Shown piece by piece: positions 33,086 to 64,000 of a stretch of DNA of 64,000 nucleotides. The DNA lies in NCBI GenBank assembly GCA_014874175.1, contig JACWAD010000048.1, positions 61,222 to 125,221 on the forward strand, given 5' to 3'. The notes under the pieces were generated by a model. The model was not told the DNA's origin. It did no database searches and worked only from the letters and a program-made list of their open reading frames with translations. Both the position numbers and the translations under genes were made by a program. Position 1 is the stretch's first letter. Each line of letters starts with the position of its first letter. Source of the stretch: Thermoleophilia bacterium. GTDB taxonomy: Bacteria; Actinomycetota; Thermoleophilia; BMS3ABIN01.

Positions 33086-35005
33086 TTATCTTTCCGGTCT
33101 TAAATAAAGAGAAAGAACGGAAATATCTGCGGGGGAAACGCCGGCTATACGTGAAGCCTGGCCCAGGTTGGAAGGGCGGAAGCGGGCCAGTTTTTCCCGG
33201 GCTTCTATCGTAATGCCCTGGAGATGCTCGAATATCATGTTTGTCGGTATTGGTGTTTTTTCGAGGGCGTTTGTGCGCCCGATTTCTGCCAGCTGGCGGT
33301 TAATGTATCCAGAGTACTTAATTTCAATTTCGGCCCGCCTGAGAATCCGGCTGTGCTCTGTCAGGGGGTGGTCCAGCAAGGGCAGAATATCGGCCATGGA
33401 GATCTCGGGACGTTTCAGCAATTGAGCCGCCGGTTGGGGTTCTGATAATGGGGCCGAGCCAATGGCGGCAAGTCGACGGTTTACATATTCGTCGGCAGGG
33501 ACCACCGTTTCTGATAAATTCGAAATCAGTTTTTCAAGATGAGCCTGGTCATTTGAAATTAAGGAAAGATCCTTATCTGCCACAAGGCCGAGGCGGTGGC
33601 CAAGAGATCCAAGCCTCGCATGCGCATTGTCGTGTCTGAGCATGAGGCGGTATTCGGCCCGGGACGTAAAAATGCGGTAGGGCTCATCCACTTCCTTTGT
33701 AACAAGGTCATCAATCAGCACGCCTATGTAGGCCTGGCTGCGCTTGAGGGTAAATGGAGAGTTGCCTTTGACAAAAAGGGCTGCGTTGATGCCAGCTATC
33801 AACCCTTGGGCTGCGGCCTCTTCATACCCCGAAGTGCCATTAATCTGGCCGGCTAGGAAAAGACCCGCAATTTTCTTGTTTTCCAGGGATAATTTCATTT
33901 GATTCGGAAAAATGTAGTCATATTCGACCGCATACCCGGGGCGAGTCAGGCGGGCTTGCTCAAGGCCCGGCGTTGCCCGGACAATTTTTTCCTGGACCCA
34001 GACCGGAAGGCTCGTCGTAAGGCCCTGTAAATACATCTCTTTCGTGTGACGTCCTTCAGGTTCAACAAAGACCGGGTGCCGGCTCCTGTCTGGAAAATTC
34101 ATAACCTTGCGGTCAATGGATGGACAGTAACGGGGGCCTTTACCGCTGACGGAGCCGCTTTTAATCGGGGAAAGATGGAGGTACTTTCGCACGACCTCAT
34201 GTGTTTTCTCCGTCGTGTAGGTGAGGTAACAGGGCATCTGAGGATGCCGATTTGGTTTTGAGAAGGGAGAAAATGTTGCGGGATTCTTGTCCCCGGGATC
34301 GATCTGCATTCTATCGGTCCGCAAGGACCGGGCATCAACGCGGGGAGGCGTTGCCGACTGGAACCTGCCGAGCTCAAGTCCTGCTTCAATCAGGCTTGAA
34401 GATAGCCCGCCCGCTGGCGGCTCCCCCATTCTGCCGGCCGGGAAAGAAAGAGCGCCGATCACAATTTTCCCCCGGAGAAAGGTGCCACAAGCGAGAATTA
34501 CAGTTTTTGCAGGGATAATACTGCCATCTATTAATTTGATGCCGTTAATTGTTTCACGTGAAACAATTATTTCCGTGGCGGTTGACTCCAGGATTTGCAG
34601 TAAGGGCTCCGAGATGAGAGCCCTTCTCATGTTGTCTTCATAAAGCTTTTTGTCTGTTTGCGCCCTCAGGGCCTGCACCGCGGGTCCCTTTCCCGTGTTC
34701 AGCATCTTCATCTGAATAAACGAACTGTCGGCATTCTTGCCCTGCTGGCCGCCGAGCGCGTCAATCTCGCGGGTTAGCTGGCCTTTTCCAATTCCACCCA
34801 CGGCTGGGTTGCAGGGCATAAGGGCGATCTTGTCAAGGTTAAGGGTAAGAAGAAGGGTCGGGCAGCCCATACGGGCGGCAGCCAGTGCTGCTTCACAGCC
34901 GGCGTGCCCGCCGCCCACAACCGCCACGTCAAACCGGGGTAACGCATTTGATTTGGTTTTACTGCTCATCCATTCACGTTCAGGAATCTGAACTCGGGCT
35001 TGCAT
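33086..35005 (-). CDS. mnmG: tRNA uridine 5-carboxymethylaminomethyl modification enzyme MnmG (GidA)
   Basis: FDVAVVGGGHAGCEAALAAARMG, CNPAVGGIGKG, GPRYCPSID, LTRPGYAVEYD, C-terminal MnmE-binding domain; start could be internal ATG at 34969. Confidence 0.95.
   Translation of the reverse strand: MQARVQIPEREWMSSKTKSNALPRFDVAVVGGGHAGCEAALAAARMGCPTLLLTLNLDKIALMPCNPAVGGIGKGQLTREIDALGGQQGKNADSSFIQMKMLNTGKGPAVQALRAQTDKKLYEDNMRRALISEPLLQILESTATEIIVSRETINGIKLIDGSIIPAKTVILACGTFLRGKIVIGALSFPAGRMGEPPAGGLSSSLIEAGLELGRFQSATPPRVDARSLRTDRMQIDPGDKNPATFSPFSKPNRHPQMPCYLTYTTEKTHEVVRKYLHLSPIKSGSVSGKGPRYCPSIDRKVMNFPDRSRHPVFVEPEGRHTKEMYLQGLTTSLPVWVQEKIVRATPGLEQARLTRPGYAVEYDYIFPNQMKLSLENKKIAGLFLAGQINGTSGYEEAAAQGLIAGINAALFVKGNSPFTLKRSQAYIGVLIDDLVTKEVDEPYRIFTSRAEYRLMLRHDNAHARLGSLGHRLGLVADKDLSLISNDQAHLEKLISNLSETVVPADEYVNRRLAAIGSAPLSEPQPAAQLLKRPEISMADILPLLDHPLTEHSRILRRAEIEIKYSGYINRQLAEIGRTNALEKTPIPTNMIFEHLQGITIEAREKLARFRPSNLGQASRIAGVSPADISVLSLYLRPER
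34547..34568. promoter_or_regulatory. parS centromere site (perfect 22-bp palindrome AATTGTTTCACGTGAAACAATT; core TGTTTCACGTGAAACA) inside mnmG
   Basis: Exact match to the Firmicutes/actinobacterial parS consensus tGTTtCAcGTGAAACa. Confidence 0.8.
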
Positions 35006-35333: not shown

Positions 35334-36398
35334 TTAAAATTTGGTTGTACAGGCAATGGTCACCGGCCTTGTTTTTCCGCAGGCAACGGCACGGCACAGC
35401 CTGGCGGCAATACTGTCAGGCTCAACCCTTGTGGCCGTCCTTGACTTGCCGGCCCGTAGTGAGGCATTCTTCCCTGCTATGGCTCCCAGGACGGCTGCTT
35501 CCGCAAAATAGCTGCAGCCGGCAGCCCTGCCGGCAAAAAAGAGCCCCGGGAGGCGCCCGGCTTCAAGGCTGGCGCCGACCTGCTTGACGGACAGGATCTG
35601 ATGATGGACGGCGTAGCCAGGCCGCGTCAACCATGGCTGCGGAAATTCGGAGCTGAGATTGCTCAGGGCAGACGCCCGGTTTCCGGCGAGCCTCGTACTT
35701 GTACCGTAAAGCTCACCCGGCACGACTTCAGGCAGCCATCGATCAGCGCCGGGGCCGCTTTTTGCTAAGCTTCTGGAGTCGAGATGAGGAGAGGAAACCG
35801 CCCGTACCCTCTCGGTGTTCACGCCAAGACCATCCAGGCAGCGGGCCAGGGCCTTGGCGGGAATCTCACTCCGGCGCCCGCCTGGGGAAAAAGAACCGCC
35901 TTCTTCTACGATCCCGCGCAAGAAGGTGCCAGCGGCTAGAACGATAGATGTTGCCATGAAGCTTTCGCCAAGGTTGGTGCCAGCAGTCCAGAATTTACCT
36001 GCCGGCTTGAGAGATGTGACAAGCGCCTGCCTGATTTCAACGTCTTCGGATTGCAGCGCCTCCTGATAGGCAAGACTGAGCTGGCGCCGGTCGGCTACCA
36101 GGGCCCCGGCGAAAGATCCGGGCGGGCATAATTCTTTTGTGCGAAGGATCCTGGGCAGCATGCCACCCATTTTGCCCAACTCTTCGATAAGCAGGTAACG
36201 AGGGTCGTCTTCACCCTCGGCCAGGACCGGGCTGCCCGGGTTAAGTCCGACGGTGTCGATGTTGATGCTTATACATAAGGATGAAGCGCCTGACCGCGCG
36301 GCTGCTGCCGACGCTTCACACCCCGCAGGTCCGCCACCGATGACCAGGACGTCGTAAACATTGTCACAATCGTTCTTATTTGCCAACACAGAATTCAC
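35334..36398 (-). CDS. Truncated MnmG/GidA-like FAD-binding protein (354 aa) lacking the insertion/catalytic-Cys region and C-terminal MnmE-binding domain
   Basis: YDVLVIGGGPAGCEASAAAARSG, AAGTFLRG, LTRPGYAVHHQ, LFFAGRAAGCSYFAEAAVLGAIAG align to MnmG motifs; CNPAIGG and RYCPS motifs absent; start overlaps mnmE stop. Confidence 0.7.
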   Translation of the reverse strand: MNSVLANKNDCDNVYDVLVIGGGPAGCEASAAAARSGASSLCISINIDTVGLNPGSPVLAEGEDDPRYLLIEELGKMGGMLPRILRTKELCPPGSFAGALVADRRQLSLAYQEALQSEDVEIRQALVTSLKPAGKFWTAGTNLGESFMATSIVLAAGTFLRGIVEEGGSFSPGGRRSEIPAKALARCLDGLGVNTERVRAVSSPHLDSRSLAKSGPGADRWLPEVVPGELYGTSTRLAGNRASALSNLSSEFPQPWLTRPGYAVHHQILSVKQVGASLEAGRLPGLFFAGRAAGCSYFAEAAVLGAIAGKNASLRAGKSRTATRVEPDSIAARLCRAVACGKTRPVTIACTTKF

Positions 36399-37752
36399 GG
36401 AAAATTTCGTCCAGCAGGTCTTCCATCATTTCCTCGCCCGTGATCTCACCCAGCGCCGTCAGCGCCGCGCGCAGCTCCTCTGAAATAATTTCTTCTCCCA
36501 GCCCCACCCGCAGGCCTTGCTGCGCCTTGAGGAGGCGCTCCGAAGCAGAGGCGAGCAGACGCTGATGGCGTTCCAGGGTTACCACGGGGCTTAAAGTGTG
36601 AGAGAAGGCTTCTCCTAAAACGAGGCGGGATATTTTTTCCTTCAGCTCGTTAAGTCCTTGACGCGTCAGGGCGGAAATTAGGACCGGCTGCGCCGGAAGC
36701 AGTCCCCGGTTAAATGATGGCGCGCGGCCGCGAAACAGGTCACATTTGTTAATTATGTAAATGGTCTTTTCCGGCAGGACCGAGGTAAGCAGGGCGCGGT
36801 CATGATCATCTTCCCGCCTGCTGCCGTCAAAAAGGCAGAGGATCAGATCTGCTTCCTTCAGCGCTTTGCGGCTGCGCTCAACGCCTATCTGTTCAACAAT
36901 GTCATCCGCAGGCGCCATGCCGGCTGTGTCAGTCAGTTGCAGGGGCACGCCGCCGACGTTGATGATCTCCTCAATGGTGTCGCGGGTAGTGCCAGGAATT
37001 TCCGTCACAATTGCCCTTTCACGCATCAGCATCGCATTGAGCAGGCTTGATTTGCCCACGTTCGGTTTGCCTACAATGGCGGTGCGGACACCCTGGCTCA
37101 GTATGCGGCCGGCAAAGGCAGACTCCGCCAGTTCCTCCAGGCACTTCTTGATCTGGGACAGGCGGGTTTCGGCTTCTTCCCGGTTGAGTTCTTCAATATC
37201 TTCATCGGAAAAATCCAGGCCAGCTTCCAGGGCGCCAAGCACAGACAGGACGCCGCGGCGAAGCGATTTTATCTCGGCAGAAAGAGACCCCTCCAGCTGT
37301 GACATTGCCAGCTTAAGCGCTGCCTCTGTCTTGGCGGATACAATCTGGGCGACGCTCTCGGCCTGGGCCAGGTCGATTCTGCCGTTTAAAAAAGCCCTGC
37401 GCGTGAATTCTCCCGGCGGCGCCAGTTCAGCGCCATGGTCCAAAAGCAGCGCCAGAATTTTTTTCTGGGCCACAGGTCCACCATGGCAGTTAACTTCCAC
37501 CATGTCTTCCCGCGTATATGTCCCGGGAGCCTTCATGACTGAAACCAGGACTTCGTCAATCACCTCCCCCGCCTCTGGGCTTACAATTCTGCCGTAGTGA
37601 AGGGTATGGGAGCCGGCTTGCTCAAGCCCGCACTTTCCCTGGAAAACGCCGCCACAAATAGTAATCGCCTCCTGGCCGGTCATGCGAACGATGCCAATGG
37701 CGCCGGCTCCCAGAGGTGTGGAGATTGCCGCTATTGTCGGGTAGTTCCGCAT
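36376..37752 (-). CDS. mnmE: tRNA modification GTPase MnmE (TrmE)
   Basis: MRNYPTIAAISTPLGAGAIGIVRMTG, G1 GKPNVGKSSLLN, G2 TTRD, C-terminal CVGK; supplied 741-aa ORF has spurious 283-aa N-terminal extension. Confidence 0.93.
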   Translation of the reverse strand: MRNYPTIAAISTPLGAGAIGIVRMTGQEAITICGGVFQGKCGLEQAGSHTLHYGRIVSPEAGEVIDEVLVSVMKAPGTYTREDMVEVNCHGGPVAQKKILALLLDHGAELAPPGEFTRRAFLNGRIDLAQAESVAQIVSAKTEAALKLAMSQLEGSLSAEIKSLRRGVLSVLGALEAGLDFSDEDIEELNREEAETRLSQIKKCLEELAESAFAGRILSQGVRTAIVGKPNVGKSSLLNAMLMRERAIVTEIPGTTRDTIEEIINVGGVPLQLTDTAGMAPADDIVEQIGVERSRKALKEADLILCLFDGSRREDDHDRALLTSVLPEKTIYIINKCDLFRGRAPSFNRGLLPAQPVLISALTRQGLNELKEKISRLVLGEAFSHTLSPVVTLERHQRLLASASERLLKAQQGLRVGLGEEIISEELRAALTALGEITGEEMMEDLLDEIFREFCVGK

Positions 37753-37774
37753 GGTGTGTATTATAACAACGGAT

Positions 37775-37802
37775 TTTGGACATTGGGCTTTGGATATTGG
37801 GC
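37775..37802. repeat. Tandem 14-nt direct repeat TTTGGAYATTGGGC x2 in mnmE/yyaL divergent promoter region
   Basis: Read directly: TTTGGACATTGGGC TTTGGATATTGGGC. Confidence 0.4.
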
Positions 37803-38061
37803 AAAAACCAAACCCATTTTTACTGAACATATAGTTATTCGGGAGAGGCTTGCCCTGAGTTTGCCTGTTTCCCCTTTCAAACAGGATGGTCAGCCTGGAT
37901 GTCGTTTGGCGCCTGGATTGTTTAAAATGTCCGGGTTGCGGCAAGCGAATGCTGGAGATCCGGCGATTATGAAAAAAGCGATGCTCTGCTTCAGCCTCCG
38001 GCGGCCGGATCTCGACAGCCCTTCGAGTTACTATATTTCTCAGGCTTCCCGGGAGAGTTGG

Positions 38062-39909
38062 ATGACTGGTAAAGGAAAGGAAAAGTTTATTTTCTCGCCC
38101 CGCCCAAACCAGGCGGCGCAAATCAGGTGGCGAGGGTGGAGCAGCCAGGCGCTGCGGCTGTCTCGCGAGCAGGGAAAACCAATCTTGCTGGTGATATCGG
38201 CCTCGTGGTGCCACTGGTGCCATGTTATGGACGAAACCTGTTTTTCTGACCCGGAGGTGATACAGTTGATCAACAGCAGATTCATACCCGTGCGTGTTGA
38301 CAGCGGTAGGAGGCCTGATATTAACAGCCGCTACAATCAGAGCGGCTGGCCAACGCTGGCATTTCTTACCCATGAAGGCGAGGTAGTTGCGAGCACCACG
38401 TATATTCCAACTGAGCAATTGAAGCGGCTGTTGACTGATATTGCCGATCTTTGCGGATCCAGCGCCAACAAGGTTAAGGAGGCCGTCCGGGAGATCCAGC
38501 GCCTGCGCCAGGAGCGCCCGCAGGCGCGGCCGGAGGAGCCGGGCCCGCAAGTCATATCCGACGTGCTCGAGGTTATGCGGCCGGAGGAGCCGGGCCCGCA
38601 AGTCATATCCGACGTGCTCGAGGTTATCGGGGAAAGTTATGACCGGGAATATGGCGGATTTGGCTGGGAGTCAAAATTCCCGTACGCCGACGCACTTGCC
38701 TTCCTGCTGACGACGCTTGCGGACGGCTATTTAGAGGCTGTTGACAATATGTTAAGAACAACGCTTGACGCCATGTCTGCCGGCGGCATGTACGACCGCG
38801 TGGAAGGGGGCTTTTTCCGGTATTCAACTGCAAGGGACTGGTCAGTTCCTCATTATGAAAAAATGCTGGCAGACAACGCCGCCTTGATGGCTGTTTACGC
38901 TAACGCATTTCTTTTAACCGGTGAGGAGGGCTACAAAAGTGTGGCCAAGGACGTCTGCTCTTATTTGCGCGCGGTGCTGCTTGACCGGCAAACGGGCGCT
39001 TTTGCCGGCAGCCAGGATGCGGATGAGCATGAGCATTATTATTCACTTGGCGCCGCAAAGCGGGCGAATAACAAAGCGCCGCGGCTGGACCGCGCGGTTT
39101 ATACGGATCAGAATGCGGCGGCCGCTTCGGCCCTGCTTCGGATGTTCCAGATATTTGACGATCCGGAGTATCGCAGTATGGCCGCAGCAGCGCTTGATTT
39201 TGTCTGGTGGCGGCTCTGGGACAGCGAATCGGGACCAAGCCATTATTATGAAGACGCAAAACCACGCTTAAGCGGGCAACTGGCCGATGCTTCCTCCCTC
39301 CTGTCGGCCTGCATGGATTCTTTCTTATGAGAGCGGCGCCGGCGAACTCTGGCTGGACAGGGCCATCCAGGCCGCGAAATGGCTGCTGGCAAGCCTTGAG
39401 GACAAGGAGAGCGGCGGCTTTTTTGATTGCTATAAGCCATTGGGCAATACCGGACTTCTGTCCGAGCGGGACAAACCAATAACAGAAAACAGCAATGCGG
39501 CCTCTGCCCTTATCCGCCTGGCCCAGTCAACCAGCATGCCAGTTTTTGGCGAGGCAGCGCGCCGGGCGCTGGCTTTTTTTGGCTCTACTTACAAGGGAAA
39601 GGCATAATAGCCGCCGGATATGCGGCTGCTGTACAACGCCTTCTGGAGCCGCCAGTGCGGGTGACGATTGTTGGTCCGGAAAGTTCCAAATCAACCAGGA
39701 TGATGATCGGCGCGGCGCACCGGGCCCGCATCCCCTTCCGTTCAGTGGAAGTGCTTGATCCGCGAACGCATGCCGAGGACCTGGAAGCTTCAGGTTTCGG
39801 ATATGCCGGCGAACCGGTGGCTTACATCTGTATCGGAACAAGCTGCCAGGCACCGGTAACCGACCCTGTTGTTCTCCCGGAACGGCTGGAAGGGAGCCGG
39901 CACCGGTAG
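38062..39909 (+). pseudogene. yyaL: Thioredoxin-domain protein YyaL/DUF255 (SPATA20-like) interrupted by two frameshifts (near 39320 and 39595)
   Basis: Three consecutive ORFs in different frames (38062-39330, 39287-39607, 39655-39909) all matching one family: ASWCHWCHVMDETCF thioredoxin motif, GGFFD..., C-terminal ICIGTSCQAPVTDP. Confidence 0.65.
38527..38628 (+). repeat. Perfect in-frame 51-bp tandem duplication (RPEEPGPQVISDVLEVM/I x2) inside yyaL-like gene
   Basis: Two adjacent 51-nt copies differing at 1 nt. Confidence 0.85.
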
Positions 39910-40568: not shown

Positions 40569-40676
40569 CATAATCATGATTCCGTGGTGGGGACCCATGG
40601 AAGCAGCCGCGCCGCGCCTTCCGTCCGGCGGGCGGCATATAATATTTCACCGGCGGTAGCTGAAAGGGGAAGAAAA

Positions 40677-42962
40677 ATGTTAGTCAACCAGCGTCAAGGA
40701 GTTGCCGGCAAGGGTCCCCGCGTCTCTGCCCTGCCACTTCAGCCCCAGCTTTCTCCAAACGCGGTAAAAGTACTGGAAAAACGGTATTTGAAGAAGGATG
40801 AGGAAGGCAGGCCCATTGAGACTCCGGCGGAGATGTTCCGGCGCGTGGCGCGCACCATCGCCGGGGCCGATCTGCTTCACAATCCGGATGCTGACGTGGA
40901 GGCCGCCGAGGAGGAATTTTACCGCATGATGACCAGGCTGGAATTTCTTCCCAACTCGCCCACCCTGATGAACGCCGGCCGGGAGCTGGGCCAGCTGTCC
41001 GCCTGTTTTGTACTGCCTGTTGGCGATTCCATGGAAAGCATTTTCACTGCTATCAAGCATACCGCCCTGATTCACAAAAGCGGCGGCGGCACCGGCTTCT
41101 CGTTTTCCCGCATCCGGCCCAGCAAAGATGTGGTGCTGTCAACTAAAGGAGTCTCTAGCGGACCAATCTCTTTTATGACGGTCTTCGATGCCGCCACAGA
41201 GACCATCAAGCAGGGCGGCACCCGCCGCGGCGCCAACATGGGCATTCTGCGTGTGGATCATCCTGACATCCTCGGTTTCATCACGGCCAAGCAAAGCAAT
41301 GACCGTCTTAACAATTTCAATATCTCAGTGGCCCTGACCGAGAATTTTATGGAGGCGGTGGAGCTTGACAGCGAGTATGACCTCATCAACCCGCGCACAG
41401 GCGAGAAAGCAAATACGCTCAAGGCGCGGCGGGTCTTTGAAATGATCGTAAATATGGCCTGGAAAAATGGCGACCCGGGCATCATTTTCATTGACCGGGT
41501 AAACCGCGACAATCCTACACCCCACATAGGTGAGATTGAGAGCACCAATCCCTGCGGCGAGCAGCCTCTGCTGCCTTATGAATCTTGCAATCTGGGCTCG
41601 ATTAACCTCGCCCGGGTAGTTGATTCATCAGGTGAGGTTGACTACGGACATCTGGGCCGTCTCGTGGATAGCGCTGTGCATTTCCTGGACAATGTCATTG
41701 ATGTCAACAAATATCCGCTCGCTGAGATCGAGAAGATGACCAGGGGAAACCGCAAGATCGGCCTGGGACTAATGGGGTTTGCCGACATGCTCATTGAACT
41801 CGGCATTCCCTACAGCTCGGACCAGGCAGTGGAGGTGGCGGAGGAGGTCATGGCTTTTATCCAGGAGGAGGCGCGCAAGAGCTCGGAGCGCCTGGCGCGC
41901 GAACGGGGAGCTTTCCCTAACTTCAGCGGCAGCGTTTTTAGTTCCAATGGCAGGCCCGAAGTGCGCAACGCCACCACTACCACAATTGCTCCCACGGGCA
42001 CGCTCAGCATTATCGCGGGCTGCTCAAGCGGCATTGAGCCCCTGTTTGCCGTTTCCTATATCAGGAACGTGCTTGATAACACGGAAATGGTTGAGGTGCA
42101 TCGCGCTTTTGAACAGGCGGCAAAGGACGGCGGTTTTTACAATGAAGAATTAATGAAAGAGATCGCAAGGAAAGGCAGCATCCAGGATTTGCCTGAGGTT
42201 CCGGACGAAATCAAGTCATTATTTGTGACTGCTCATGACGTTACCCCCGAATGGCACGTTCGCATGCAGGCGGCTTTTCAGAAGTACACTGACAATGCTG
42301 TTTCAAAAACGGTGAATTTTGCCCACGGCGCCACAACTGCAGACGTTGAACAGGTTTACAAACTTGCCTACAGGACCGGTTGCAAGGGGGTCACCATCTA
42401 CAGGGACGGCAGCCGCGAGGTGCAGGTGCTAAATATCGGCGGAGTTAAGGGGAAAGAGGCGGTGGCTGTGCCAGGGCAGGTTAAGCCGCGGCCCCGCCCC
42501 GGTTTTATAACGGGCGGTACCCATAAACTCGCTTCCGGTTGTGGCAACATCTACGTAACCATCAACCAAGATGAGCACGGCTTGTTTGAGGTCTTCTCTT
42601 CCATGGGGCTGGCCGGCGGCTGCAAGGGGGCCCAGTCGGAGGCGATCGCCAGGCTGATATCTCTGGCTCTCAGATCAGGAGTTGCCGTTGATGCGGTGAT
42701 AAAGTCCGTCAAGGGAATTCGCTGTCCGACACCTGGGTTCGGCGAGGGGGTCAAGGTAAATTCTTGCCCGGACGCGATCGCGCAGGCCCTGCTGGCGCAT
42801 TTGAAAAAAATGCCGCATCTGGCAGACGGCGCAGTGGCGGGATTGCCATCATCAGCCGAGTTGGCCCACTGCCCTGAGTGCCCCGAATGCGGCAGCACAG
42901 GCCTCGAGTTTGGTGAAGGGTGTGTTTTTTGCCGTTCCTGTGGATTTTCACGCTGCGGCTAG
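40677..42962 (+). CDS. nrdJ: Adenosylcobalamin-dependent ribonucleoside-diphosphate reductase (class II, NrdJ) with C-terminal zinc ribbon
   Basis: [37 protein letters not shown] active-site region, C-terminal CPECPECGS...CVFCRSCG; ATG at 40677 after AAAGGGGA. Confidence 0.9.
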
Positions 42963-49106: not shown

Positions 49107-50033
49107 TCACGAAGACCGCAGTATATCCTTGAATCCTTCCAGGCCGGTGCTGTTTCTGATTCTGTAGCGCGAGAGCTCCAGGGGGGCGCTGCTGCTTTGC
49201 CGGTCGCCCCATTTTTCCGTTGTTGCAAGCAGGTAACCGTCTGCTTTCTCGGCCTGAAGAACCCTGGCGTTGAACTTGCCGGAGGGGTAGCAAAACCAGT
49301 AGACAGGATGGCCGAGATGGGCGCTTAAGGCGCCGGCCGAATCAACCAGTTCATGTTCCAGATCAGCCGTTGAGACAATGGACAGGTCTTCGTGGTTGAC
49401 AGTATGAGAGCCTATATCCATGCCGTCTATTGCCATTACTCCAATCTGTTCCCAATTTAAATAACCCGGCTGTCCAACCTTGCCGGTAATGATGTAAAAA
49501 GTGGCGGGGAAATCGTATTTGACAAGAACCGGCAGCGCCTGCGTGAAATTGTCAAGATAGCCATCGTCAAAAGTAATCAGCACCGGCCTGCCAGGCAGCG
49601 CCCTTCCCATAAAAAGGGCATCAGACAGCTGAGTCTGGGTTATGGGGTGCCAACCGGCAGATTGCAGGTAGTTTAGTTGCCCGTCCAGATCGGCTGCAGA
49701 AACCGTCAGGTCACGCCGAATGGCATCGGCGCCGGCAGGCGCTTCGCCGACGTGATGAAACATAAATATAGGCACCGTCACCGTTCTGGGAGGTTGCGGA
49801 GCGGTCAGTGGAATTACAAACGCCTGGAAATGATTGACAGGCGTCCTGGGGGGAATGGGGGCCACCGGCAGCAAATATGGATTCATTAGAAAACCGCCCG
49901 TAGCAGTTATGTCTGACAGCTTGTTTTGTTTTTGTGCCCCGGAAAGGGAGGCTGTCAGGAATAGCAGCAAAAAAGCCAGGCCCAGCTTTAGTGCCGGACG
50001 CCTCAATTTTGTCATCGCTGGCAATTGCGGCAT
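49107..50033 (-). CDS. Polysaccharide deacetylase (NodB/CE4 family), secreted/lipoprotein
   Basis: Signal peptide; ITFDDGY, HTVNHEDL CE4 motifs. Confidence 0.85.
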   Translation of the reverse strand: MPQLPAMTKLRRPALKLGLAFLLLFLTASLSGAQKQNKLSDITATGGFLMNPYLLPVAPIPPRTPVNHFQAFVIPLTAPQPPRTVTVPIFMFHHVGEAPAGADAIRRDLTVSAADLDGQLNYLQSAGWHPITQTQLSDALFMGRALPGRPVLITFDDGYLDNFTQALPVLVKYDFPATFYIITGKVGQPGYLNWEQIGVMAIDGMDIGSHTVNHEDLSIVSTADLEHELVDSAGALSAHLGHPVYWFCYPSGKFNARVLQAEKADGYLLATTEKWGDRQSSSAPLELSRYRIRNSTGLEGFKDILRSS

Positions 50034-50933: not shown

Positions 50934-52649
50934 TCAGAAATTTATCAGCGACTGAAATTTAAGGCCGACCAGCGTAACCAGCTCTCTTAAGTGTGGAGAA
51001 TAGGAAACAACAATGGCCAACGGCGCCAGCGCCGCGACAAACAAGGCGGTCAGTTCTAGCGATAGCCTTCCAAAGCCGGGATCACCGGCTCGCTTGACTT
51101 CTCTTCCGGTTCTGCTATTTTCCAGGGACCAGTTAATCAGGCGCTTCCAGACTTTAGGCAGAATCTCGTTTCCCTTGCTCCAGACCAGCAGGGCAACGGG
51201 AGGTCCAAACACGACCAGCACCCGCAGCGTTTCCTGCACGTCCATGGACAGCGGGGAATGCCACCAGAAGCTGTCAAAAAACATAACTGTGAACGAAAAC
51301 AGCAGCGCGCACTTATAGATAAGACGCCAGGGCCTGAGAGCGATCAGACCCAGCGCCATCGTCAGATACCATGGCTGGAACCACAGCAGGGCCAGCGGCA
51401 TTAAAAAGGCTATGCCGGCGGACGCCGAAACAAGAGCGGCCCTGTTCTTGACGCCAAGGGCATGCCAGGTCAAATAAACAACCAGCGCTGCCGCTAGCGC
51501 CAGCTGGACTACTGTGATTGATAGCGGCAGTTGCAACTGTCCCACGGAAACGTCATGAATCAGCTGAGGGATGGTGAAATTGACTTTTTCGCCCACAGCA
51601 GTCAAATAGCTGAAAGTTCCGCGGCCCTCCCACAGGGGGGCGTAACTGGCCAGAATTGTTGCAACAGCAACTGCAAGAGACCCCGCCCCCGTCAACAGAC
51701 GCCATTTCAGCTTGGCCTGCTTGCGAATTGACAGAGCGATGTAAACCAGCAGGATCGGCAGAGCAATGAACTTGACCAGAACCGCCAGCGTAATAAAAAA
51801 AGCACCCAGGATCAGGCGCCGGTTGAGATAGCACAAGATGCCGGCCAGCACAAAAACAAGCATGAAGATGTCATTGTGGGCGCTCGCCACCACCAGAGCC
51901 AGGATGAATGGGTTCCAGCCATAAAAAAGCATTGCCTTTTTCTCCAGCCCGGGGCGCAGGCGGGCGGCAATGCTTCCGATGAGGATCACGTTGGCAAGAT
52001 CAAGGCAGACGAAGAAGCTTTTGAAGACAAGGAAATTTGCTCCAATGCCGTTGCCGGCGATTACCGCCAGGAACCCGGCGGCGTAAACGTGGAGCGGCCC
52101 GTAAACAGAGCCGGTTCCCACCCAGCCGCCCATGTTAAAGAAAGGATCGTGAGGAAAATATGTGGCCGGCACGACCAGCGGGTTCTCGCCGTAGATGGCG
52201 AATATGCGTCCGTGGCGAATGTAGTCAAAAAGATCGGTTGACAAAAGGAACGGCGTTAACAGCATCACCAGGTGGAAGAGAACCGTCATGCCGAAGATAT
52301 AGTTTGTCATGCTGTCGCGCCGCCAGGGATGGAGAGGCGCCGGCGCCGACGGCAGGACAGCTCCCGAACGGAGATTGCTTACCGCTCTTAGGGCAATGAA
52401 ATACAAGCCAAACAGGAGCAGGGCATTGATGCAAATTAATATGTATAACAGGTAATAGTCTGTTAACCCTAAACCGCCATCCGGCAGGGCCAGATAGGGA
52501 GGAAAGTGGCTGAAGTCAGCCCGGGGGATAAACAGGGGCAGGATGGCAAACAGCAAATATGAAAACAGGCAGGCGCCCCCCGCCGTCATGATCATGACCC
52601 GGGGGCTGGCCAGTTTTCCGTTGTTGATTTTATCGAGCCTTTGCCACAT
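50934..52649 (-). CDS. GT-C superfamily membrane glycosyltransferase (DUF2029/GT87-like mannosyltransferase candidate)
   Basis: 571 aa, >11 TM, DLFDYIRHGRIFAIYGENPLVVP loop motif near N-terminus; operon with MctB-like and deacetylase. Confidence 0.5.
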   Translation of the reverse strand: MWQRLDKINNGKLASPRVMIMTAGGACLFSYLLFAILPLFIPRADFSHFPPYLALPDGGLGLTDYYLLYILICINALLLFGLYFIALRAVSNLRSGAVLPSAPAPLHPWRRDSMTNYIFGMTVLFHLVMLLTPFLLSTDLFDYIRHGRIFAIYGENPLVVPATYFPHDPFFNMGGWVGTGSVYGPLHVYAAGFLAVIAGNGIGANFLVFKSFFVCLDLANVILIGSIAARLRPGLEKKAMLFYGWNPFILALVVASAHNDIFMLVFVLAGILCYLNRRLILGAFFITLAVLVKFIALPILLVYIALSIRKQAKLKWRLLTGAGSLAVAVATILASYAPLWEGRGTFSYLTAVGEKVNFTIPQLIHDVSVGQLQLPLSITVVQLALAAALVVYLTWHALGVKNRAALVSASAGIAFLMPLALLWFQPWYLTMALGLIALRPWRLIYKCALLFSFTVMFFDSFWWHSPLSMDVQETLRVLVVFGPPVALLVWSKGNEILPKVWKRLINWSLENSRTGREVKRAGDPGFGRLSLELTALFVAALAPLAIVVSYSPHLRELVTLVGLKFQSLINF

Positions 52650-55270: not shown

Positions 55271-57337
55271 ATGAAATTAATTGTCACCGAAAAAAATACT
55301 GCCGCAAAAAAAATTGCCGAAATACTCGGAGCCGGCAAGGTGAAGGCGGAATCCTACTACAAGATCCCCTTTTATGTATTCGCGAACGGCGGCGGGGAAG
55401 AGTTTGTCTCGATTGGACTGAAGGGACATATTCTGCAGCTTGAATATCCGCCTGAGTACTCCGACTGGCGCAAGGTGGAGCCGCGCGAGCTTATCGATGC
55501 CGACCTGGTCAAGTCACCTTCAGCCAAGTCGGTGGTAAATGCCCTTCAGAAGGCCGCCCGGCAGGCCAGCCGCATCATCATCGCCACCGACTATGACCGT
55601 GAGGGTGAGCTCATCGGGCTGGAAGCCCTGGAGCTGGCGCTTCAGGCCAACCCCAAGCTGGCCGAGCACGTGAAGCGGGCCCGCTACTCGGCGCTTACGG
55701 CAGAGGAAATCCGCAACGCATTTACCAATACAGTTGAGCTCTCGGTGCCGCTGGCGCAAGCCGGTGAGGCCCGGCAGGACATAGATTTAATCTGGGGAGC
55801 TACTCTGACCCGCTACATTTCGCTTGCGACTTCACGGCTGGGAAGCCAATTCCTTTCCGTTGGCAGGGTGCAGAGTCCTACGTTAAAGCTGATTGTGGAA
55901 CGGGAGCTGGAAAGAAGGGCGTTTGTGCCGGTTCCCTACTGGCAAATTTTCGCTGACCTGGCGGCGGAGCCGGGACCGTTTACCGCCCGGCACAAGACCG
56001 AGCGGTTTCAGGACAAGGGCGCCGCAGAGACGGCCCTGGGCAGGGCCAGGGCCGCGGAGACCGGGCTTGTCACGGGAGTAAAGACGACGCAGAAGCAGCT
56101 TCCGCCTCCGCCTCCCTTCAACACGACTTCCTATACAAAAGCGGCCACGGCGCTGGGCTTTTCGGCCGCCCGTGCCGTGCGGCTGGCGGAGGATCTTTAC
56201 CTGGCCGGTTACATCAGCTATCCTCGCACCGATAATACCGTTTATCCGGAGTCTCTTGGCCTCAAAGAAATTCTCGGGCAACTCAGCCATAGCAGGGAGC
56301 TGAAAAGCCATGCTGATGAGCTGCTTGAGCGGGGGGAGTTAAAACCATCGCGGGGCAAGAAGCAAACGACGGATCACCCCCCGATTTATCCCGTCGATGT
56401 GCCCAAGGTGGGTGATATCGATGAGGCCCAGTGGAAGATATGGCACCTGGTGGCGCGGCGCTTCCTGGCTACGCTCGGAGATAGCGCCGTTTCGGAGACG
56501 GGCCGCATCGACCTGGAGATTGGTGGCGAGCCGTTCATGCTGTCGGGCTCGCGCATTCTGGAAGAAGGCTGGCTGGCGTACTATCCCTACGGGCGCAGCA
56601 AGGACGACGAGATGCCAAAACTAAAGCAGGGGGAGCAGGTACAGGTAGTCAAGGTCTCCCTGGAATCGAAAGAGACCCAGCCGCCGGGCCGCTATGGCCA
56701 GGGGCGGCTGATTGAGCTGATGGAACAGAACGGACTTGGAACCAAGGCGACGCGCCACAGCATCCTGCAGACGCTTTACGACCGGGGATACATCCGCAAC
56801 ACTCCCGTAGAGCCAACTGAGACAGGCATATCCATGATCAGGGCACTCGATACCTACGCCAACCTGATCACCAGGCCCGAGATGACAGCCCGGCTGGAAA
56901 CAGAAATGAGCGACATTGCCGAGTCCAAGATCACCAGGGAAGAAGTGGTGCAAAGGTCGCGGGCGCTGCTGCACGATGCCTACAAAATGATGGAGAACAA
57001 CAAGGAGGCATTGGCCGGAGAGATCGTCAAGGGAATCCAGGAGGACAAGCTGGTGGGCGCCTGCCCCAACTGTGGCAAGCAGCTCAGGGTTATCCGCTCA
57101 AAAAGGACAAAGAAGCGATTCGTCGGCTGCGAGGGCTACCCGGAGTGTTCAACAACCTATCCTCTGCCCCAGCGGGGCAGCATAATGCCCACCTATAAAA
57201 CATGCCCCGAATGCGGTTCTCCCAAGATCAAGGTGCTTAACAAGGGCCGCCGCCCCTGGGAGCTCTGCATCGATCCCGACTGCCCGACCAAGGAGGAGTA
57301 CAAGCTAAAGAGAGCCCAAAAAGAGGGAGCTTCCTAG
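55271..57337 (+). CDS. topA: Type IA DNA topoisomerase (topoisomerase I, archaeal/topo III-like N-terminus) with two C-terminal zinc ribbons
   Basis: Toprim MKLIVTEKNTAAKKIAEIL / TDYDREGE, active-site GYISYPRTDN, CPNCG...CEGYPEC and CPECGS...CIDPDCP. Confidence 0.9.
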   Translation: MKLIVTEKNTAAKKIAEILGAGKVKAESYYKIPFYVFANGGGEEFVSIGLKGHILQLEYPPEYSDWRKVEPRELIDADLVKSPSAKSVVNALQKAARQASRIIIATDYDREGELIGLEALELALQANPKLAEHVKRARYSALTAEEIRNAFTNTVELSVPLAQAGEARQDIDLIWGATLTRYISLATSRLGSQFLSVGRVQSPTLKLIVERELERRAFVPVPYWQIFADLAAEPGPFTARHKTERFQDKGAAETALGRARAAETGLVTGVKTTQKQLPPPPPFNTTSYTKAATALGFSAARAVRLAEDLYLAGYISYPRTDNTVYPESLGLKEILGQLSHSRELKSHADELLERGELKPSRGKKQTTDHPPIYPVDVPKVGDIDEAQWKIWHLVARRFLATLGDSAVSETGRIDLEIGGEPFMLSGSRILEEGWLAYYPYGRSKDDEMPKLKQGEQVQVVKVSLESKETQPPGRYGQGRLIELMEQNGLGTKATRHSILQTLYDRGYIRNTPVEPTETGISMIRALDTYANLITRPEMTARLETEMSDIAESKITREEVVQRSRALLHDAYKMMENNKEALAGEIVKGIQEDKLVGACPNCGKQLRVIRSKRTKKRFVGCEGYPECSTTYPLPQRGSIMPTYKTCPECGSPKIKVLNKGRRPWELCIDPDCPTKEEYKLKRAQKEGAS

Positions 57338-60030: not shown

Positions 60031-60855
60031 TTGGACCCGCGGCCAATTGGCATGTTCGACTCCGGCGTCGGCGGCCTGACGGTGCTGCATGAGTGCCTTG
60101 TGACGTTGCCGGAAGAGGACTTCATCTACCTTGGCGACAACGGCCGCTTCCCCTACGGGTCAAGAACTGCAGGCGAAATCAGGGATTTTGCCGGCCAGAT
60201 TGCCTCTCATCTCTTGGCCCTGGACGTCAAGCTGCTGGTAGTGGCGTGCAATTCAGCCACGGCGGCGGCGCTGCCCTGGCTGCAGGAGCGGCTGGACGCC
60301 GCCATTGTCGGGGCTGTTTTCCCTGAGTCCGAGGCGGCCGTGCAGATTACCAGGAACCGGCGCGTGGGCGTGATGGCCACCGAGGCGACCATTGCCAGCG
60401 GCAGCTACAGGCGGGCGCTGACGGATCTGGACGCAGGTCTTGACGTATTCTCGCAGCCGTGTCCGCGTCTGGCCTCCATGATCCAGAACGGCGACGTCTC
60501 TTCGCCGGCAATGATAGAAATTGTCAAAGGATACGCGGCGCCGCTGAAGGCGGCCGGGGTGGACACGGTCATCCTCGGCTGCACCCATTATCCTCTGGTG
60601 ACGCCGATGCTGAAGCGGATTCTGGGCAGGGACGTGACACTGGTCAGTCCGGCACAGGAGATTGCCCGGCTGGTTGCCGCGACACTGCGGCGCAAGGGCG
60701 CTCAAAACCGGACCGGGCGCGAGGGAAGATATTCGTTCCTTTGCACCGGCGATGTGGAATCGTTCGTAGAGGTGGGGGCGCGCTTTTTGCAGATGCCCTT
60801 TGAGAACGTCAGCAAGGTTGAGATTTCCGGACTGGAAAGGATGGGTGTGGCGTGA
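60031..60855 (+). CDS. murI: Glutamate racemase
   Basis: IGMFDSGVGGLTV, VVACNSATA, GCTHYPLV active-site motifs. Confidence 0.92.
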   Translation: MDPRPIGMFDSGVGGLTVLHECLVTLPEEDFIYLGDNGRFPYGSRTAGEIRDFAGQIASHLLALDVKLLVVACNSATAAALPWLQERLDAAIVGAVFPESEAAVQITRNRRVGVMATEATIASGSYRRALTDLDAGLDVFSQPCPRLASMIQNGDVSSPAMIEIVKGYAAPLKAAGVDTVILGCTHYPLVTPMLKRILGRDVTLVSPAQEIARLVAATLRRKGAQNRTGREGRYSFLCTGDVESFVEVGARFLQMPFENVSKVEISGLERMGVA

Positions 60856-60880
60856 ACTTTTCCCCCGGGAGGCAATCATA

Positions 60881-61612
60881 ATGGCCCTTAAAAGGCCGGA
60901 CGGCCGCCCCGCCGACGGCATCAGGCCGCTCAGGTTTACCCCCGGCTTTATTGAGTGGGCCGACGGCTCGGTGCTGATTGAAGCAGGCAAGACAAAGGTG
61001 ATTTGCGCCGCAACCATTCAGGACGGCGTCCCTCCCTGGCTGAGAGGACACGGCAGCGGCTGGGTTACGGCTGAGTACAGCATGCTGCCGGCGGCCACGC
61101 CGGGGCGCAAGATCCGCGAAGCCGTCAGGGGAAAACAGGAAGGGCGCACGGTTGAGATCCAGCGGCTGGTCGGGCGCAGCCTGCGCGCCGTTGTGGATAT
61201 GCGCGCCCTGGGCGACCGCACCGCCTGGATCGACTGCGACGTCATCCAGGCCGACGGCGGCACCCGCTGCGCCTCGGTCTCCGGCGCTTACGTGGCTCTT
61301 TACCTGGCGCTGGCGGGACTTGTGGACAGGGATTTCATCAAGGAGCTGCCGCTTAAGGATTCCATTGCCGCCGTCAGCGTCGGCGTGCGGGGGGGCGAGC
61401 CGGTGCTGGACCTTGATTACGTGGAGGACAGCAGCGCCGAAGTTGACATGAACGTCATCATGACCGGCTCCGGCAGGCTGGTGGAAGTTCAGGCAACTGC
61501 GGAGAAAGAGGCCTTCTCCCGCGAACTCCTTGCCCGCCTGCTTGACCTCGCCGCAGAGGGGATCCGGCAGATCGGGGCAGAGCAGTTGAAAGTGACGGCA
61601 AACAGATCCTAG
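60881..61612 (+). CDS. rph: Ribonuclease PH
   Basis: MALKRPDGRPADGIRPLRF..., GSGWVTAEYSMLP, DCDVIQADGGTR; ATG at 60881 after GGGAGG; supplied ORF over-extended upstream. Confidence 0.92.
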   Translation: MALKRPDGRPADGIRPLRFTPGFIEWADGSVLIEAGKTKVICAATIQDGVPPWLRGHGSGWVTAEYSMLPAATPGRKIREAVRGKQEGRTVEIQRLVGRSLRAVVDMRALGDRTAWIDCDVIQADGGTRCASVSGAYVALYLALAGLVDRDFIKELPLKDSIAAVSVGVRGGEPVLDLDYVEDSSAEVDMNVIMTGSGRLVEVQATAEKEAFSRELLARLLDLAAEGIRQIGAEQLKVTANRS

Positions 61613-61675
61613 GAGAATCCGGGCAGGCGCCGCCGCTTTCTTTTACTGCCCGGTTTGCCTCGTCTGACCGCGGTT

Positions 61676-64000
61676 CTAAAGCCCCGGCACGGTCCCCTGC
61701 ACTTCGTTGAAATACCCGCTCCAGAGCACCCGCTGCGAGGCCAGAATGTTTTGCGGAGTGCCGCCGCCTGGCGAGTGGGCCCGCACTTCGACCAGGCCTC
61801 CCATAACGCCCGGGAAGCGGGGATACGCCATCGAGCCGGGCATCCCCTTTGGCGCCAGGGTGTATGAGCTTCTGAATGCCCCTCCGATATAGACATCTGC
61901 GGTGACGTACTGGTTTTCCGTATTGGCGAGCAGGACCCAGTTCAGTGAGCCTGGGGACAGGTTGTCGTACCAGGTCCAGTCGTACGAGGACGACAGCGCC
62001 GTAGCGCGGTAGCCCGGCACTTCCTCGAACGAAGGGCCCCATATGCTCCTCTGGGAAGCGATCACGCTGGCCGGCTGGCTGCCGCCAACCGCGTCCGACC
62101 AGGCCTGAACTTCCACCGGCCCGCCCATGACGCCCGGGAAAGTGGGAGTCGCTTCCCGGCCGCCGGCAAGCACGCCGGCCGCGCAGCGGCGGGCGTCGCC
62201 ATTCTGGCAGCCGCCGGCGATGCTGATCTGGTAATAGACTGCCGAGGCGCCGGGATTGGCCACCAGCACCCAGTTTTTGGCGCCGGCGGACTGCATGTCG
62301 TACCAGGTCCAGTAATACTGGCTGGAAAGCTCCGAATAGCTCCCGGCCGGGATCCCGCCGACTTCATTGAAGGCGGTGCCGCCGCCGGTCGTCACGCGCT
62401 GGGAAGCGATCACATGCTCCGGGGTTCCGGGGGAGCCCTGTTTCCATGCGTTTACCAGAACGGGACCGCCCATCCGGCCGGGAAAGTCAGGCGTAACCCT
62501 CTGGCCAGGGGCCAGGTTATACGTTCCGGTGATCTGTGTTTTTGACACTACGTCAAAGAAAGATACCTGGGTTGTAACGGCGTCCGTCGTGCTGGGGTTG
62601 CCCACCAGCACCCAGTTTTTAAAGCCGGGACTGAATTCATCGTACCAGGTCCAGTAGTACTGGCTGGAAAGCTTGCTTTCGTCAATCGCCGGCGTCTCCT
62701 CGAGCGAGTTGCCGAAGAGCACCCGCTGGGAGATCACCGCCGGCAGCCCCGACAGCTTGTTGACGGTCAGCGGGCCGCCCATCCTGCCCGGCCAGGTCGT
62801 AAAGGCAGACTTGCCGTGCCTGGAGTCCAGGTAGGCCGCAGCCAGGGGCGGATTGCCCAGCTGGGCCCAGAAGTGGGCCTCGCCGCCGAATTCGCTGGGG
62901 TCGGCGGCCAGCAGCCAGTCCTTCATCCCCGGGCTCTGCTGGTCGTACCAGGTGAAGAAGGAGCGGGTGCCGAAGGTGAGCGTCCAGTCAAGCAGCATAG
63001 GACTTTTCCGGCAGGGATAACATAGCGACCTGAATGCCGCCATCAGCTGCAGCTGGGGATACTTGTTCGGGTCCAGGCCGGAAAGGACGATGGAATTGCC
63101 GCGGAAGCCCCGGGAGTTCCCGGGCAGATCCGAGTCCGGCACCAGGCCGACGCCCGGCTGGAACACCTGCACGTAAAGGTCTTGGCCGTTTAAGGCCGCG
63201 GTTGTCAGCACCTCGCCCCACTTGATGCCGGGATATTTGCCGGTGTAATTTGTGATGTCAATCACCGGCGACAGCGTGTAGCCGGATTGGTCGAAGTCCA
63301 TCCTAATAAACTGGTCTGTTGAAAGCTGCAGGTAATCACACTGGTTATATGTGCCGCAGTTCTGGCCAAACGCAGGGTCTGCATTAACATTCCAGAGTAC
63401 GGGCTGGTCCATCAGGTTGACATGGGTGGTGTTGCTGAACAGGTTGTAGTAGCCGTTTACCTTTACTGTCTTAAAATCGGTCAGTACCCCATAGGGAGTG
63501 TCGTTGGGCGTATTCCAGGCATTTGGATCGTTTAGCTCAACCGAGAGCAGAAAGATGTCGGGGTTCGAGTCCAGGGGGAGGGTGCTGTTGGTCCAGAGCA
63601 GGTTTCCGTTTACCCAGTACTGGGTGTTTCCCTGGCCGTCGTATACCAGCCGCAGATCGTAAAAAACGGGATTTCCCTGGCTGTCCTTCTCTGGCAGATT
63701 TTGATTTGTAAAGCCGCCAACGGACGGAAGCGTCTTCGACTGGTCATGGGCGGGTCCGCCGGCGTCCCACATAGCAACCGCCCTGAGGCCGCCGCCGTTG
63801 CCGTCATCCTGCAGGGCTATCTCCTCGTAACCGCTCTCGCCGTCGTAGATGGTGACGCCGCCAAAGCACGTGGTGGTTTGCGGCCGACTCGGATCAGGCC
63901 GGGTGTTGACCTGGGTTTCGACGTCGATCGGTGTGTCCTTATTGAAGGCCTGCTTTGACTCGATCCCCCAGCTGACGCCCTGCATCTGCAGGTACTCGTC
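61676..64000 (-). CDS. Large secreted-type protein with four C-terminal ~110-aa tandem repeats (WTWYD ... NWVLVANP ... FPGVMGGPVEV ... VIASQRV ... FNEV); N-terminus beyond window
   Basis: 769+ aa ORF, no stop upstream to window edge; internal repeats evident in translation; Asn/Gly/Trp/Tyr-rich. Confidence 0.6.
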   Translation of the reverse strand, partial: DEYLQMQGVSWGIESKQAFNKDTPIDVETQVNTRPDPSRPQTTTCFGGVTIYDGESGYEEIALQDDGNGGGLRAVAMWDAGGPAHDQSKTLPSVGGFTNQNLPEKDSQGNPVFYDLRLVYDGQGNTQYWVNGNLLWTNSTLPLDSNPDIFLLSVELNDPNAWNTPNDTPYGVLTDFKTVKVNGYYNLFSNTTHVNLMDQPVLWNVNADPAFGQNCGTYNQCDYLQLSTDQFIRMDFDQSGYTLSPVIDITNYTGKYPGIKWGEVLTTAALNGQDLYVQVFQPGVGLVPDSDLPGNSRGFRGNSIVLSGLDPNKYPQLQLMAAFRSLCYPCRKSPMLLDWTLTFGTRSFFTWYDQQSPGMKDWLLAADPSEFGGEAHFWAQLGNPPLAAAYLDSRHGKSAFTTWPGRMGGPLTVNKLSGLPAVISQRVLFGNSLEETPAIDESKLSSQYYWTWYDEFSPGFKNWVLVGNPSTTDAVTTQVSFFDVVSKTQITGTYNLAPGQRVTPDFPGRMGGPVLVNAWKQGSPGTPEHVIASQRVTTGGGTAFNEVGGIPAGSYSELSSQYYWTWYDMQSAGAKNWVLVANPGASAVYYQISIAGGCQNGDARRCAAGVLAGGREATPTFPGVMGGPVEVQAWSDAVGGSQPASVIASQRSIWGPSFEEVPGYRATALSSSYDWTWYDNLSPGSLNWVLLANTENQYVTADVYIGGAFRSSYTLAPKGMPGSMAYPRFPGVMGGLVEVRAHSPGGGTPQNILASQRVLWSGYFNEVQGTVPGL

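Follow-up and report, generated by a model that had tools for sequence, protein, structure and literature searches.

An ASRAH-like tetrad of β-sandwich repeats as a probable wall-anchoring module in uncultured actinobacteria

Introduction

The closest known counterparts of the protein module examined here belong to the ASRAH superfamily, which was founded on ASRT and TM1070 by De Souza, Iyer & Aravind (Biol Direct 2009; PMC2739507). Three families were distinguished: solo intracellular proteins that form tetramers (family 1); tetrads from Roseiflexus, Chloroflexus, and Herpetosiphon that are secreted and in every case joined to an N-acetylmuramoyl-L-alanine amidase (family 2); and dyads in an actinobacterial lipoprotein (family 3) (PMC2739507). 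Both TM1070 and ASRT are homotetramers, and two hallmark residues recur: strand 1 opens with a Trp that is preceded by a polar residue, and strand 2 closes with a near-invariant Asn (PMC2739507). The fold was predicted to bind sugar in a cleft lined by strand 2; the cleft walls come partly from the subunit interface, which would explain why the domains occur as tetramers, dyads, or tetrads (PMC2739507). Here, we describe a gene in a 64,000-nucleotide stretch (the window) of Thermoleophilia bacterium (assembly GCA_014874175.1, contig JACWAD010000048.1, positions 61,222 to 125,221 of the forward strand). Its product, P0001, ends in four tandem repeats, together termed the tetrad.

Many secreted proteins of Firmicutes, autolysins included, are held non-covalently on wall polymers by SLH or CWB2 triplets, which are terminal repeats of fixed number that form compact pseudo-oligomeric bodies. 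The tetrad resembles these triplets in its fixed tandem repeat number, its terminal position, and its reuse on secreted proteins, a parallel that we draw by analogy. It differs from them in structure, being predicted as an all-β sandwich rather than helical (SLH) or α/β (CWB2), and in having four units instead of three.

Since the ASRAH fold, the idea of a tetrad, and the predicted glycan-binding role were all published in 2009, and terminal wall-anchoring repeats are familiar, the module is not categorically new. Three aspects are new: the sequence family is large and invisible to both Pfam and NCBIfam, it serves for the general display of dozens of passenger types and not of amidases alone, and it is confined to one uncultured lineage of actinobacteria, in which it has expanded.

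P0001 and its four repeats

The tetrad gene runs off the edge of the window (Table 1). Its frame is still open at position 64000, and the ATG at 63985 is internal to it. A database protein of 875 amino acids (aa), P0001, is identical (100%) to all 774 in-window residues. As this complete protein extends beyond the in-window open reading frame (ORF), the gene start lies outside the window, as an original prediction made from the window's letters had stated. The codons for the signal peptide and for the ~57 residues that begin the mature protein lie beyond the window. The N-terminus reads MTYNPPIKADRLFPEHTFCRVAALISALAATILVFAVMAAPAHA/GALWEE (the slash marks the cleavage site) and comprises a basic stretch, a hydrophobic core, and an AxA cleavage site (AHA/G) that is kept among P0001 orthologues. 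From this signal peptide with its conserved site, we conclude that P0001 is exported, in keeping with the surface-type protein originally proposed. Full-length orthologues were found at 84%, 83%, and ~50% identity, one of them in a syntenic locus, and thus the reading frame is conserved.

The C-terminal 431 residues consist of four tandem repeats of ~105 aa each. In repeat-versus-repeat local alignments, the units shared 32 to 49% identity and scored z values of 11 to 41 above shuffled controls, and so the four consecutive repeats predicted for the C-terminal half are real. The motifs that had been quoted for every repeat (SSQYYWTWYD, NWVLVANP, FPGxMGGPVxV, VIASQRV, and FxEV) were found in repeats 2 to 4; repeat 1 is a degenerate copy with RSFFTWYD, DWLLAADP, WPGRMGGPLTV, and VISQRVLFGNSLEE. 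Strand 2 of the repeats reads (K/R)(N/D)W(V/I)L(V/M)(A/S)N followed by P. The residues invariant in all four positions are D10, W19, R93, and E102, together with W8, Y9, N24, S91, and Q92.

The repeat had been described as belonging to no recognized family, and this held: neither Pfam nor NCBIfam gave a match to P0001 at E ≤ 1, and no Pfam family covers the module in P0001 or in ~110 relatives. Two sets of 51 members scanned against Pfam returned 45 and 43 families in all; the most frequent of these, a passenger domain in either set, was matched in no more than 8 and 12 members, respectively. A phmmer search of PDB sequences with P0001 returned chance antibody matches only.

An inserted loop of repeat 3 carries a Cys pair (GGCQNGDARRC). 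The pair is kept among orthologues (consensus GGCxxGxxxxC), and similar loop Cys pairs occur in other members. From sequence, it would fit a disulfide bond and an extracytoplasmic location.

Table 1. Coordinates of the tetrad gene, its encoded parts, and other features of the window
Feature	Position	Strand	P0001 residues	Description
Tetrad gene, 3' portion	61676..64000	-	102-875 and stop	From the ORF listing and the database protein
Stop codon of tetrad gene	61676..61678	-		
Passenger domain 1, in-window part	63449..64000	-	~44-285 (whole domain)	Concanavalin A-like β jelly roll, model-based
Passenger domain 2	62972..63448	-	~286-444	β-rich, without fold assignment, lower-confidence model
Repeat 1	62669..62971	-	445-545	Divergent position; ftWYD..nWvLmanP..gGPV..vSQR.Lw.GnSlEEV
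Repeat 2	62327..62668	-	546-659	yyWtWYD..NWvlvaNP..mGGPVEV.Aw..ASQRVLs..AFNEvpGiP
Repeat 3	61994..62326	-	660-770	WTWYD..ANP..GGPVeV..IASQR..wGpSFeEvpG
Cys-pair loop of repeat 3	62180..62230		~699-707	
Repeat 4	61679..61993	-	771-875	Ends the protein; YhWTWYDq..NWVlvaNp..GGPVeV..aSQRVLwnGyFNEv.Gtv
Overlapping ORFs (examples)	61458..62042; 62062..62367			Overlap the tetrad gene; treated as by-products of high G+C content
Spacer	61613..61675			Between the stops of the tetrad gene and rph
Terminator-like hairpin	61625..61638	+		Weak; in the spacer
rph	60800..61612			RNase PH
topA	55271..57337			
571-aa ORF	50934..52649	-		
Polysaccharide deacetylase gene	49107..50033			
Ribonucleotide reductase gene	40584..42962			
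mnmE (MnmE/TrmE)	36376..38601	-		741 aa as listed
mnmG	33086..35005			
Class A penicillin-binding protein gene	28293..30299			
secA	14403..16985			

A fixed four-unit module in a large family

The initial homology search returned ~14 proteins that align to P0001 over the full length and more than 30 others that align only over the C-terminal 55% and have unrelated N-terminal domains. Judged by motif positions, nearly every homologue carried four C-terminal units, and one protein (P0009) carried two sets of four. We then searched 1.84 billion representatives, clustered at 50% identity, with a single-repeat profile (A2). This gave 1175 representative clusters at E ≤ 1e-3 and 453 at E ≤ 1e-30, and nearly all of the top 150 matches contained 4 or 8 matched stretches. 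Exactly four repeats were present in 173 of 185 members and eight in another 4 of the 185. The module ended within 15 aa of the C-terminus in 168/185. By a crude signal-peptide test, which asked for one 12-residue segment near the N-terminus with a mean Kyte-Doolittle hydropathy of at least 2.0, a hydrophobic N-terminal segment was present in 132 of the 172 members that start with Met. The terminal tail VLWNGYFNEVxGTVL is conserved, and two proteins, P0041 and P0042, consist of a signal peptide and the tetrad alone.

Each repeat position has its own conserved signature (Table 1). With position profiles trained on half of the proteins, 334 of 348 held-out repeats were placed at the position from which they came, which implies that the tetrad is inherited as a differentiated whole. 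These sequences indicate that the tetrad arose once, that its units became non-equivalent, and that the whole tetrad moves between genes. Thus, the original prediction of a cell-surface repeat domain was right about the repeats but has to be recast: these are not four loose repeats but a fixed four-unit module that is reused on hundreds of exoproteins.

Predicted fold and probable relation to ASRAH

An AlphaFold2 model of the tetrad (434 residues) was built on a 36-sequence alignment. The model is compact and all-β, with ~8 strands per unit, a mean predicted local distance difference test (pLDDT) score of 94, and a predicted template modeling (pTM) score of 0.91. Such a high pTM implies that the four units are packed in a defined arrangement in the model. 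A β-propeller was considered as the fold of the tetrad and ruled out, as the units are sandwiches of ~105 aa, compared to propeller blades of ~45 aa. In the model, each unit instead has the eight-stranded β-sandwich of the TM1070 fold, by which ASRAH domains are recognized.

Both ASRAH hallmarks have counterparts in the repeats. Across 40 repeats, the Trp of the WTWYD motif (W8) is at least 90% conserved; it comes after T or P and sits in strand 1 of every unit. N24 of the (A/S)NP motif is likewise at least 90% conserved and stands right behind strand 2 in the model's DSSP trace. For comparison at the sequence level, we recovered ASRT and TM1070 sequences, the ASRT-family alignment comprising only 10 sequences. 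Position-specific profiles of repeats 2 to 4 aligned with this 10-sequence alignment in hhalign at P values of 0.02 to 0.04, collinear over 84 columns. The alignment pairs the Trp, the Asn, and an invariant strand-7 Arg, found in SQR in the repeats and in SR in ASRT. Taking structure and hallmark residues together, we regard the repeats as probable remote homologues of ASRT and TM1070.

The tetrad shares with ASRAH both hallmark residues, the tetrad organization, extracellular versions, fusion to amidases in some members, and a predicted glycan role. In contrast to family 1 (PF07100), its strand 2 lacks the SHEshChhN pattern, and P0001 is secreted and multidomain rather than stand-alone and intracellular. 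Compared to the family 2 tetrads, it is not restricted to amidases but occurs with dozens of passenger types and in at least 11 copies in one genome, and its hosts are uncultured Thermoleophilia-like actinobacteria instead of Chloroflexi. This distinction from the Chloroflexi (Roseiflexus) amidase tetrads is drawn from their published description and not from sequence, and the module may simply represent family 2 in a new host.

Passengers carried by the module

The N-terminal half of P0001 holds two passenger domains. The first was modeled with moderate confidence (pLDDT 75) as a concanavalin A-like jelly roll and may be of the lectin or glycanase type; its closest known counterparts are in the concanavalin A-like lectin/glucanase superfamily, which takes in GH16, PL7, CBM66, DUF1080, and legume-lectin-like proteins. 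A GH16 enzyme was ruled out as its identity because the catalytic motif ExDxxE is not present. Pfam found no amidase domain in P0001.

Across the family, the commonest passenger type is the NosD/right-handed β-helix. Pfam identified wall hydrolases (Amidase_2, CHAP, M23, and SLT), and further members are named “N-acetylmuramoyl-L-alanine amidase” or “SpoIID/LytB domain-containing protein” in their source records. Protease passengers include thermolysin M4, subtilase S8, sedolisin, A4, and caspase-like C14 types. PD40/TolB-like and DPPIV propellers, YCF48/BNR, LVIVD, CAP, GH26, and GH114 were also found, along with many Ig-like spacers. Amidase_2 is in the minority (2 of 51 members, plus P0058 and P0252). 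The established anchoring and wall-binding families SLH, CWB2, choline-binding, LysM, SH3b, and PG_binding gave no match in P0001 at E ≤ 1 and were absent from the 25 most frequent families in each 51-member set.

Distribution among genomes

A scan of one genome per GTDB species gave 98 confirmed loci, of which 79 were kept. These 79 loci come from ~20 metagenome-assembled genomes (MAGs) labelled Actinomycetes, Actinomycetota, Thermoleophilia, or Gaiellales. Many copies can share one genome: 11 loci were found in DBS2-1.bin96, 9 in bin122, 7 in bin123, and 5 to 6 in several more. The whole 64-kb window holds a single copy. No copies were found in cultured phages and plasmids by tblastn or in IMG/VR viral contigs by scanning.

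Two module-bearing genes stand side by side at some loci. In four MAGs, a protein of ~560 to 590 aa (L009:1801-3483, L031:1709-3487, L037:3025-4791, and L041:1659-3404) has a signal peptide, a divergent tetrad with a module score of ~300, compared to ~550 in typical members, and an extra C-terminal β domain of ~110 aa. In all four, the next gene downstream is a large one that likewise has a tetrad at its end, and the short and large genes look like a conserved pair.

Typical tetrads, at 46 to 48% identity, were also found on two short contigs with other labels, L011 (6.9 kb, labelled Geobacter sp.) and L028 (2.6 kb, labelled uncultured archaeon). These labels are probably binning errors rather than signs of lateral transfer.

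Proposed wall anchoring and its alternatives

We propose that the tetrad is probably an ASRAH-like module that keeps exoproteins on the cell envelope through non-covalent binding to a wall glycan. In this model, the protein would be exported via Sec, and its C-terminal ~430 residues would fold into one compact body of four ASRAH-like sandwiches. Up to four sites on this body would bind wall glycan, which could be peptidoglycan or a wall-associated polymer. The N-terminal passenger, which in P0001 would be the concanavalin A-like jelly roll and the second β domain, would thereby be held on the cell surface. Wall anchoring is favored because one invariant terminal module serves many unrelated exoproteins per genome, the organism's own autolysins included; glycan binding is favored because the closest relatives of the fold are predicted sugar binders. 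W8, Y9, D10, W19, N24, S91-Q92-R93, and E102 may form the glycan site, the invariant polar and aromatic residues being of types that we would regard as typical of such sites. By strand register, W19 would lie on the face that in TM1070 carries the cleft residues H25 and C29.

Several points weigh against this proposal. Glycan binding, the ligand, and the wall as its target are predictions. The pseudo-tetramer geometry, the packing like that of the TM1070 homotetramer, and the pocket residues are likewise predicted. Similarity to ASRT in sequence falls short of significance, the P values of 0.02 to 0.04 given above included: Pfam PF07100 gave no match at E ≤ 1, and hmmsearch with the 40-repeat profile found nothing among PDB sequences at E ≤ 10. 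The hhalign comparison of the repeat profile with single TM1070 or ASRT sequences was not significant, and that with the 10-sequence ASRT alignment gave an E value of 0.12. The signal-peptide count is heuristic, and the module is internal or near the N-terminus in 13 of the 185 members.

Three other explanations of the tetrad were weighed. It could be a carbohydrate-binding module (CBM) that targets enzymes to external polysaccharides and not to the cell's own wall. We consider this unlikely, since most passengers are not carbohydrate-active enzymes (TolB-like propellers, proteases, NosD β-helices, and YCF48), several (Amidase_2, CHAP, M23, SLT, and SpoIID) have the peptidoglycan of the cell itself as substrate, and one invariant module on at least 11 unrelated proteins in a genome is the pattern of a wall anchor, not of a substrate-specific CBM. 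The same hydrolase fusions favor wall targeting over a self-assembly or oligomerization scaffold, in which a surface-layer lattice or sheath would display the passengers through protein-protein contacts. Homotetrameric TM1070 and ASRT do show that the fold has protein-protein interfaces, and such a scaffold could account for P0041 and P0042 and for the conserved pairing of a short tetrad gene with an adjoining large one. However, the single-chain pTM of 0.91 suggests that the interfaces are satisfied within the chain, and the invariant D10, W19, R93, and E102 resemble a ligand site more than a lattice contact. We rate a scaffold as slightly less likely than a CBM.

The extreme C-terminal location in most members, the conserved tail, and the many paralogues per genome with unrelated passengers would also be expected of a C-terminal secretion or sorting signal, possibly removed after use, like the C-terminal domain of the type IX secretion system or the signals of sortases and exosortases. 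To our knowledge, all known sorting domains are several times smaller than the ~430 aa of the tetrad. The tetrad also occurs duplicated (8 repeats) and internally, lacks both a hydrophobic or charged tail and any LPXTG-like motif, and is matched by no Pfam sorting-domain model, and no gene for dedicated machinery is linked to it in the syntenic locus or in the window, whose other proteins were scanned in part. We therefore regard a sorting signal as very improbable.

Wall anchoring by the tetrad could reach further than single proteins. More tentatively, and with the balance of our judgment slightly against it, the tetrad may be the main and hitherto unrecognized wall-anchoring system of the whole uncultured lineage, a single-chain pseudo-tetramer of ASRT-like domains recognizing a lineage-specific wall glycopolymer and displaying most of the exoproteome, autolysins included. 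If true, it would join SLH, CWB2, and choline-binding repeats as a fourth, independent kind of general anchoring module and would give the first functional handle on the extracellular ASRAH branch.

The family amounts to at least 1175 clusters at 50% identity that have no coverage in curated libraries, and it marks proteins that are probably surface displayed in a lineage known only from metagenomes. With a profile of the module, ~430 residues would be annotated in every one of hundreds of “hypothetical” proteins, and the surface proteome of these MAGs would be flagged. The module also allows the 2009 prediction of wall-glycan binding by extracellular ASRAH tetrads to be tested. A single-chain tetrad that is well predicted and fused to an autolysin would lend itself to expression, crystallography, and assays of glycan binding, and if binding proves specific, the module could be used as a probe for the wall polymer of the lineage.

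Genomic neighborhood

The tetrad gene converges on rph, with ~60 bp between the two stops. The one weak terminator-like hairpin in this spacer is no more than shuffled sequence gives, and Rfam returned no family at gathering score across the 64 kb. Beyond rph lie murI, a gene for a PSP1-domain protein, holB, tmk, and topA. The same gene arrangement surrounds the 84%-identical orthologue P0002 in DBS2-1.bin96 (locus L001), and it is from this locus only that the upstream context of the tetrad gene is known. Directly upstream of the orthologue, L001:1-9800 is a block resembling a mobile element, with a phage-type integrase, helix-turn-helix proteins, Gp49, and a DnaB-like helicase/AAA_25 protein; the window ends before the equivalent region.

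The original prediction had suggested a search for co-occurring sortase or S-layer genes. No sortase, S-layer, or dedicated secretion gene adjoins the tetrad gene, the other proteins of the window having been scanned only in part. The large ORFs that were scanned are housekeeping genes (secA, the class A penicillin-binding protein gene, mnmG, mnmE, the ribonucleotide reductase gene, and topA). SecA and the penicillin-binding protein imply that Sec export and peptidoglycan are present in the organism.

Two genes that lie next to each other in the window could be envelope-glycan genes. The 571-aa ORF had no Pfam match at E ≤ 1e-5, and the syntenic gene in L001 carries PF26314 (MptA_B_family, mannosyltransferase-like); the polysaccharide deacetylase gene adjoins this ORF. 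Within the MnmE/TrmE ORF, TrmE_N starts only at residue 289. Either the listed start is too far upstream or the protein has an unusual N-terminal extension.

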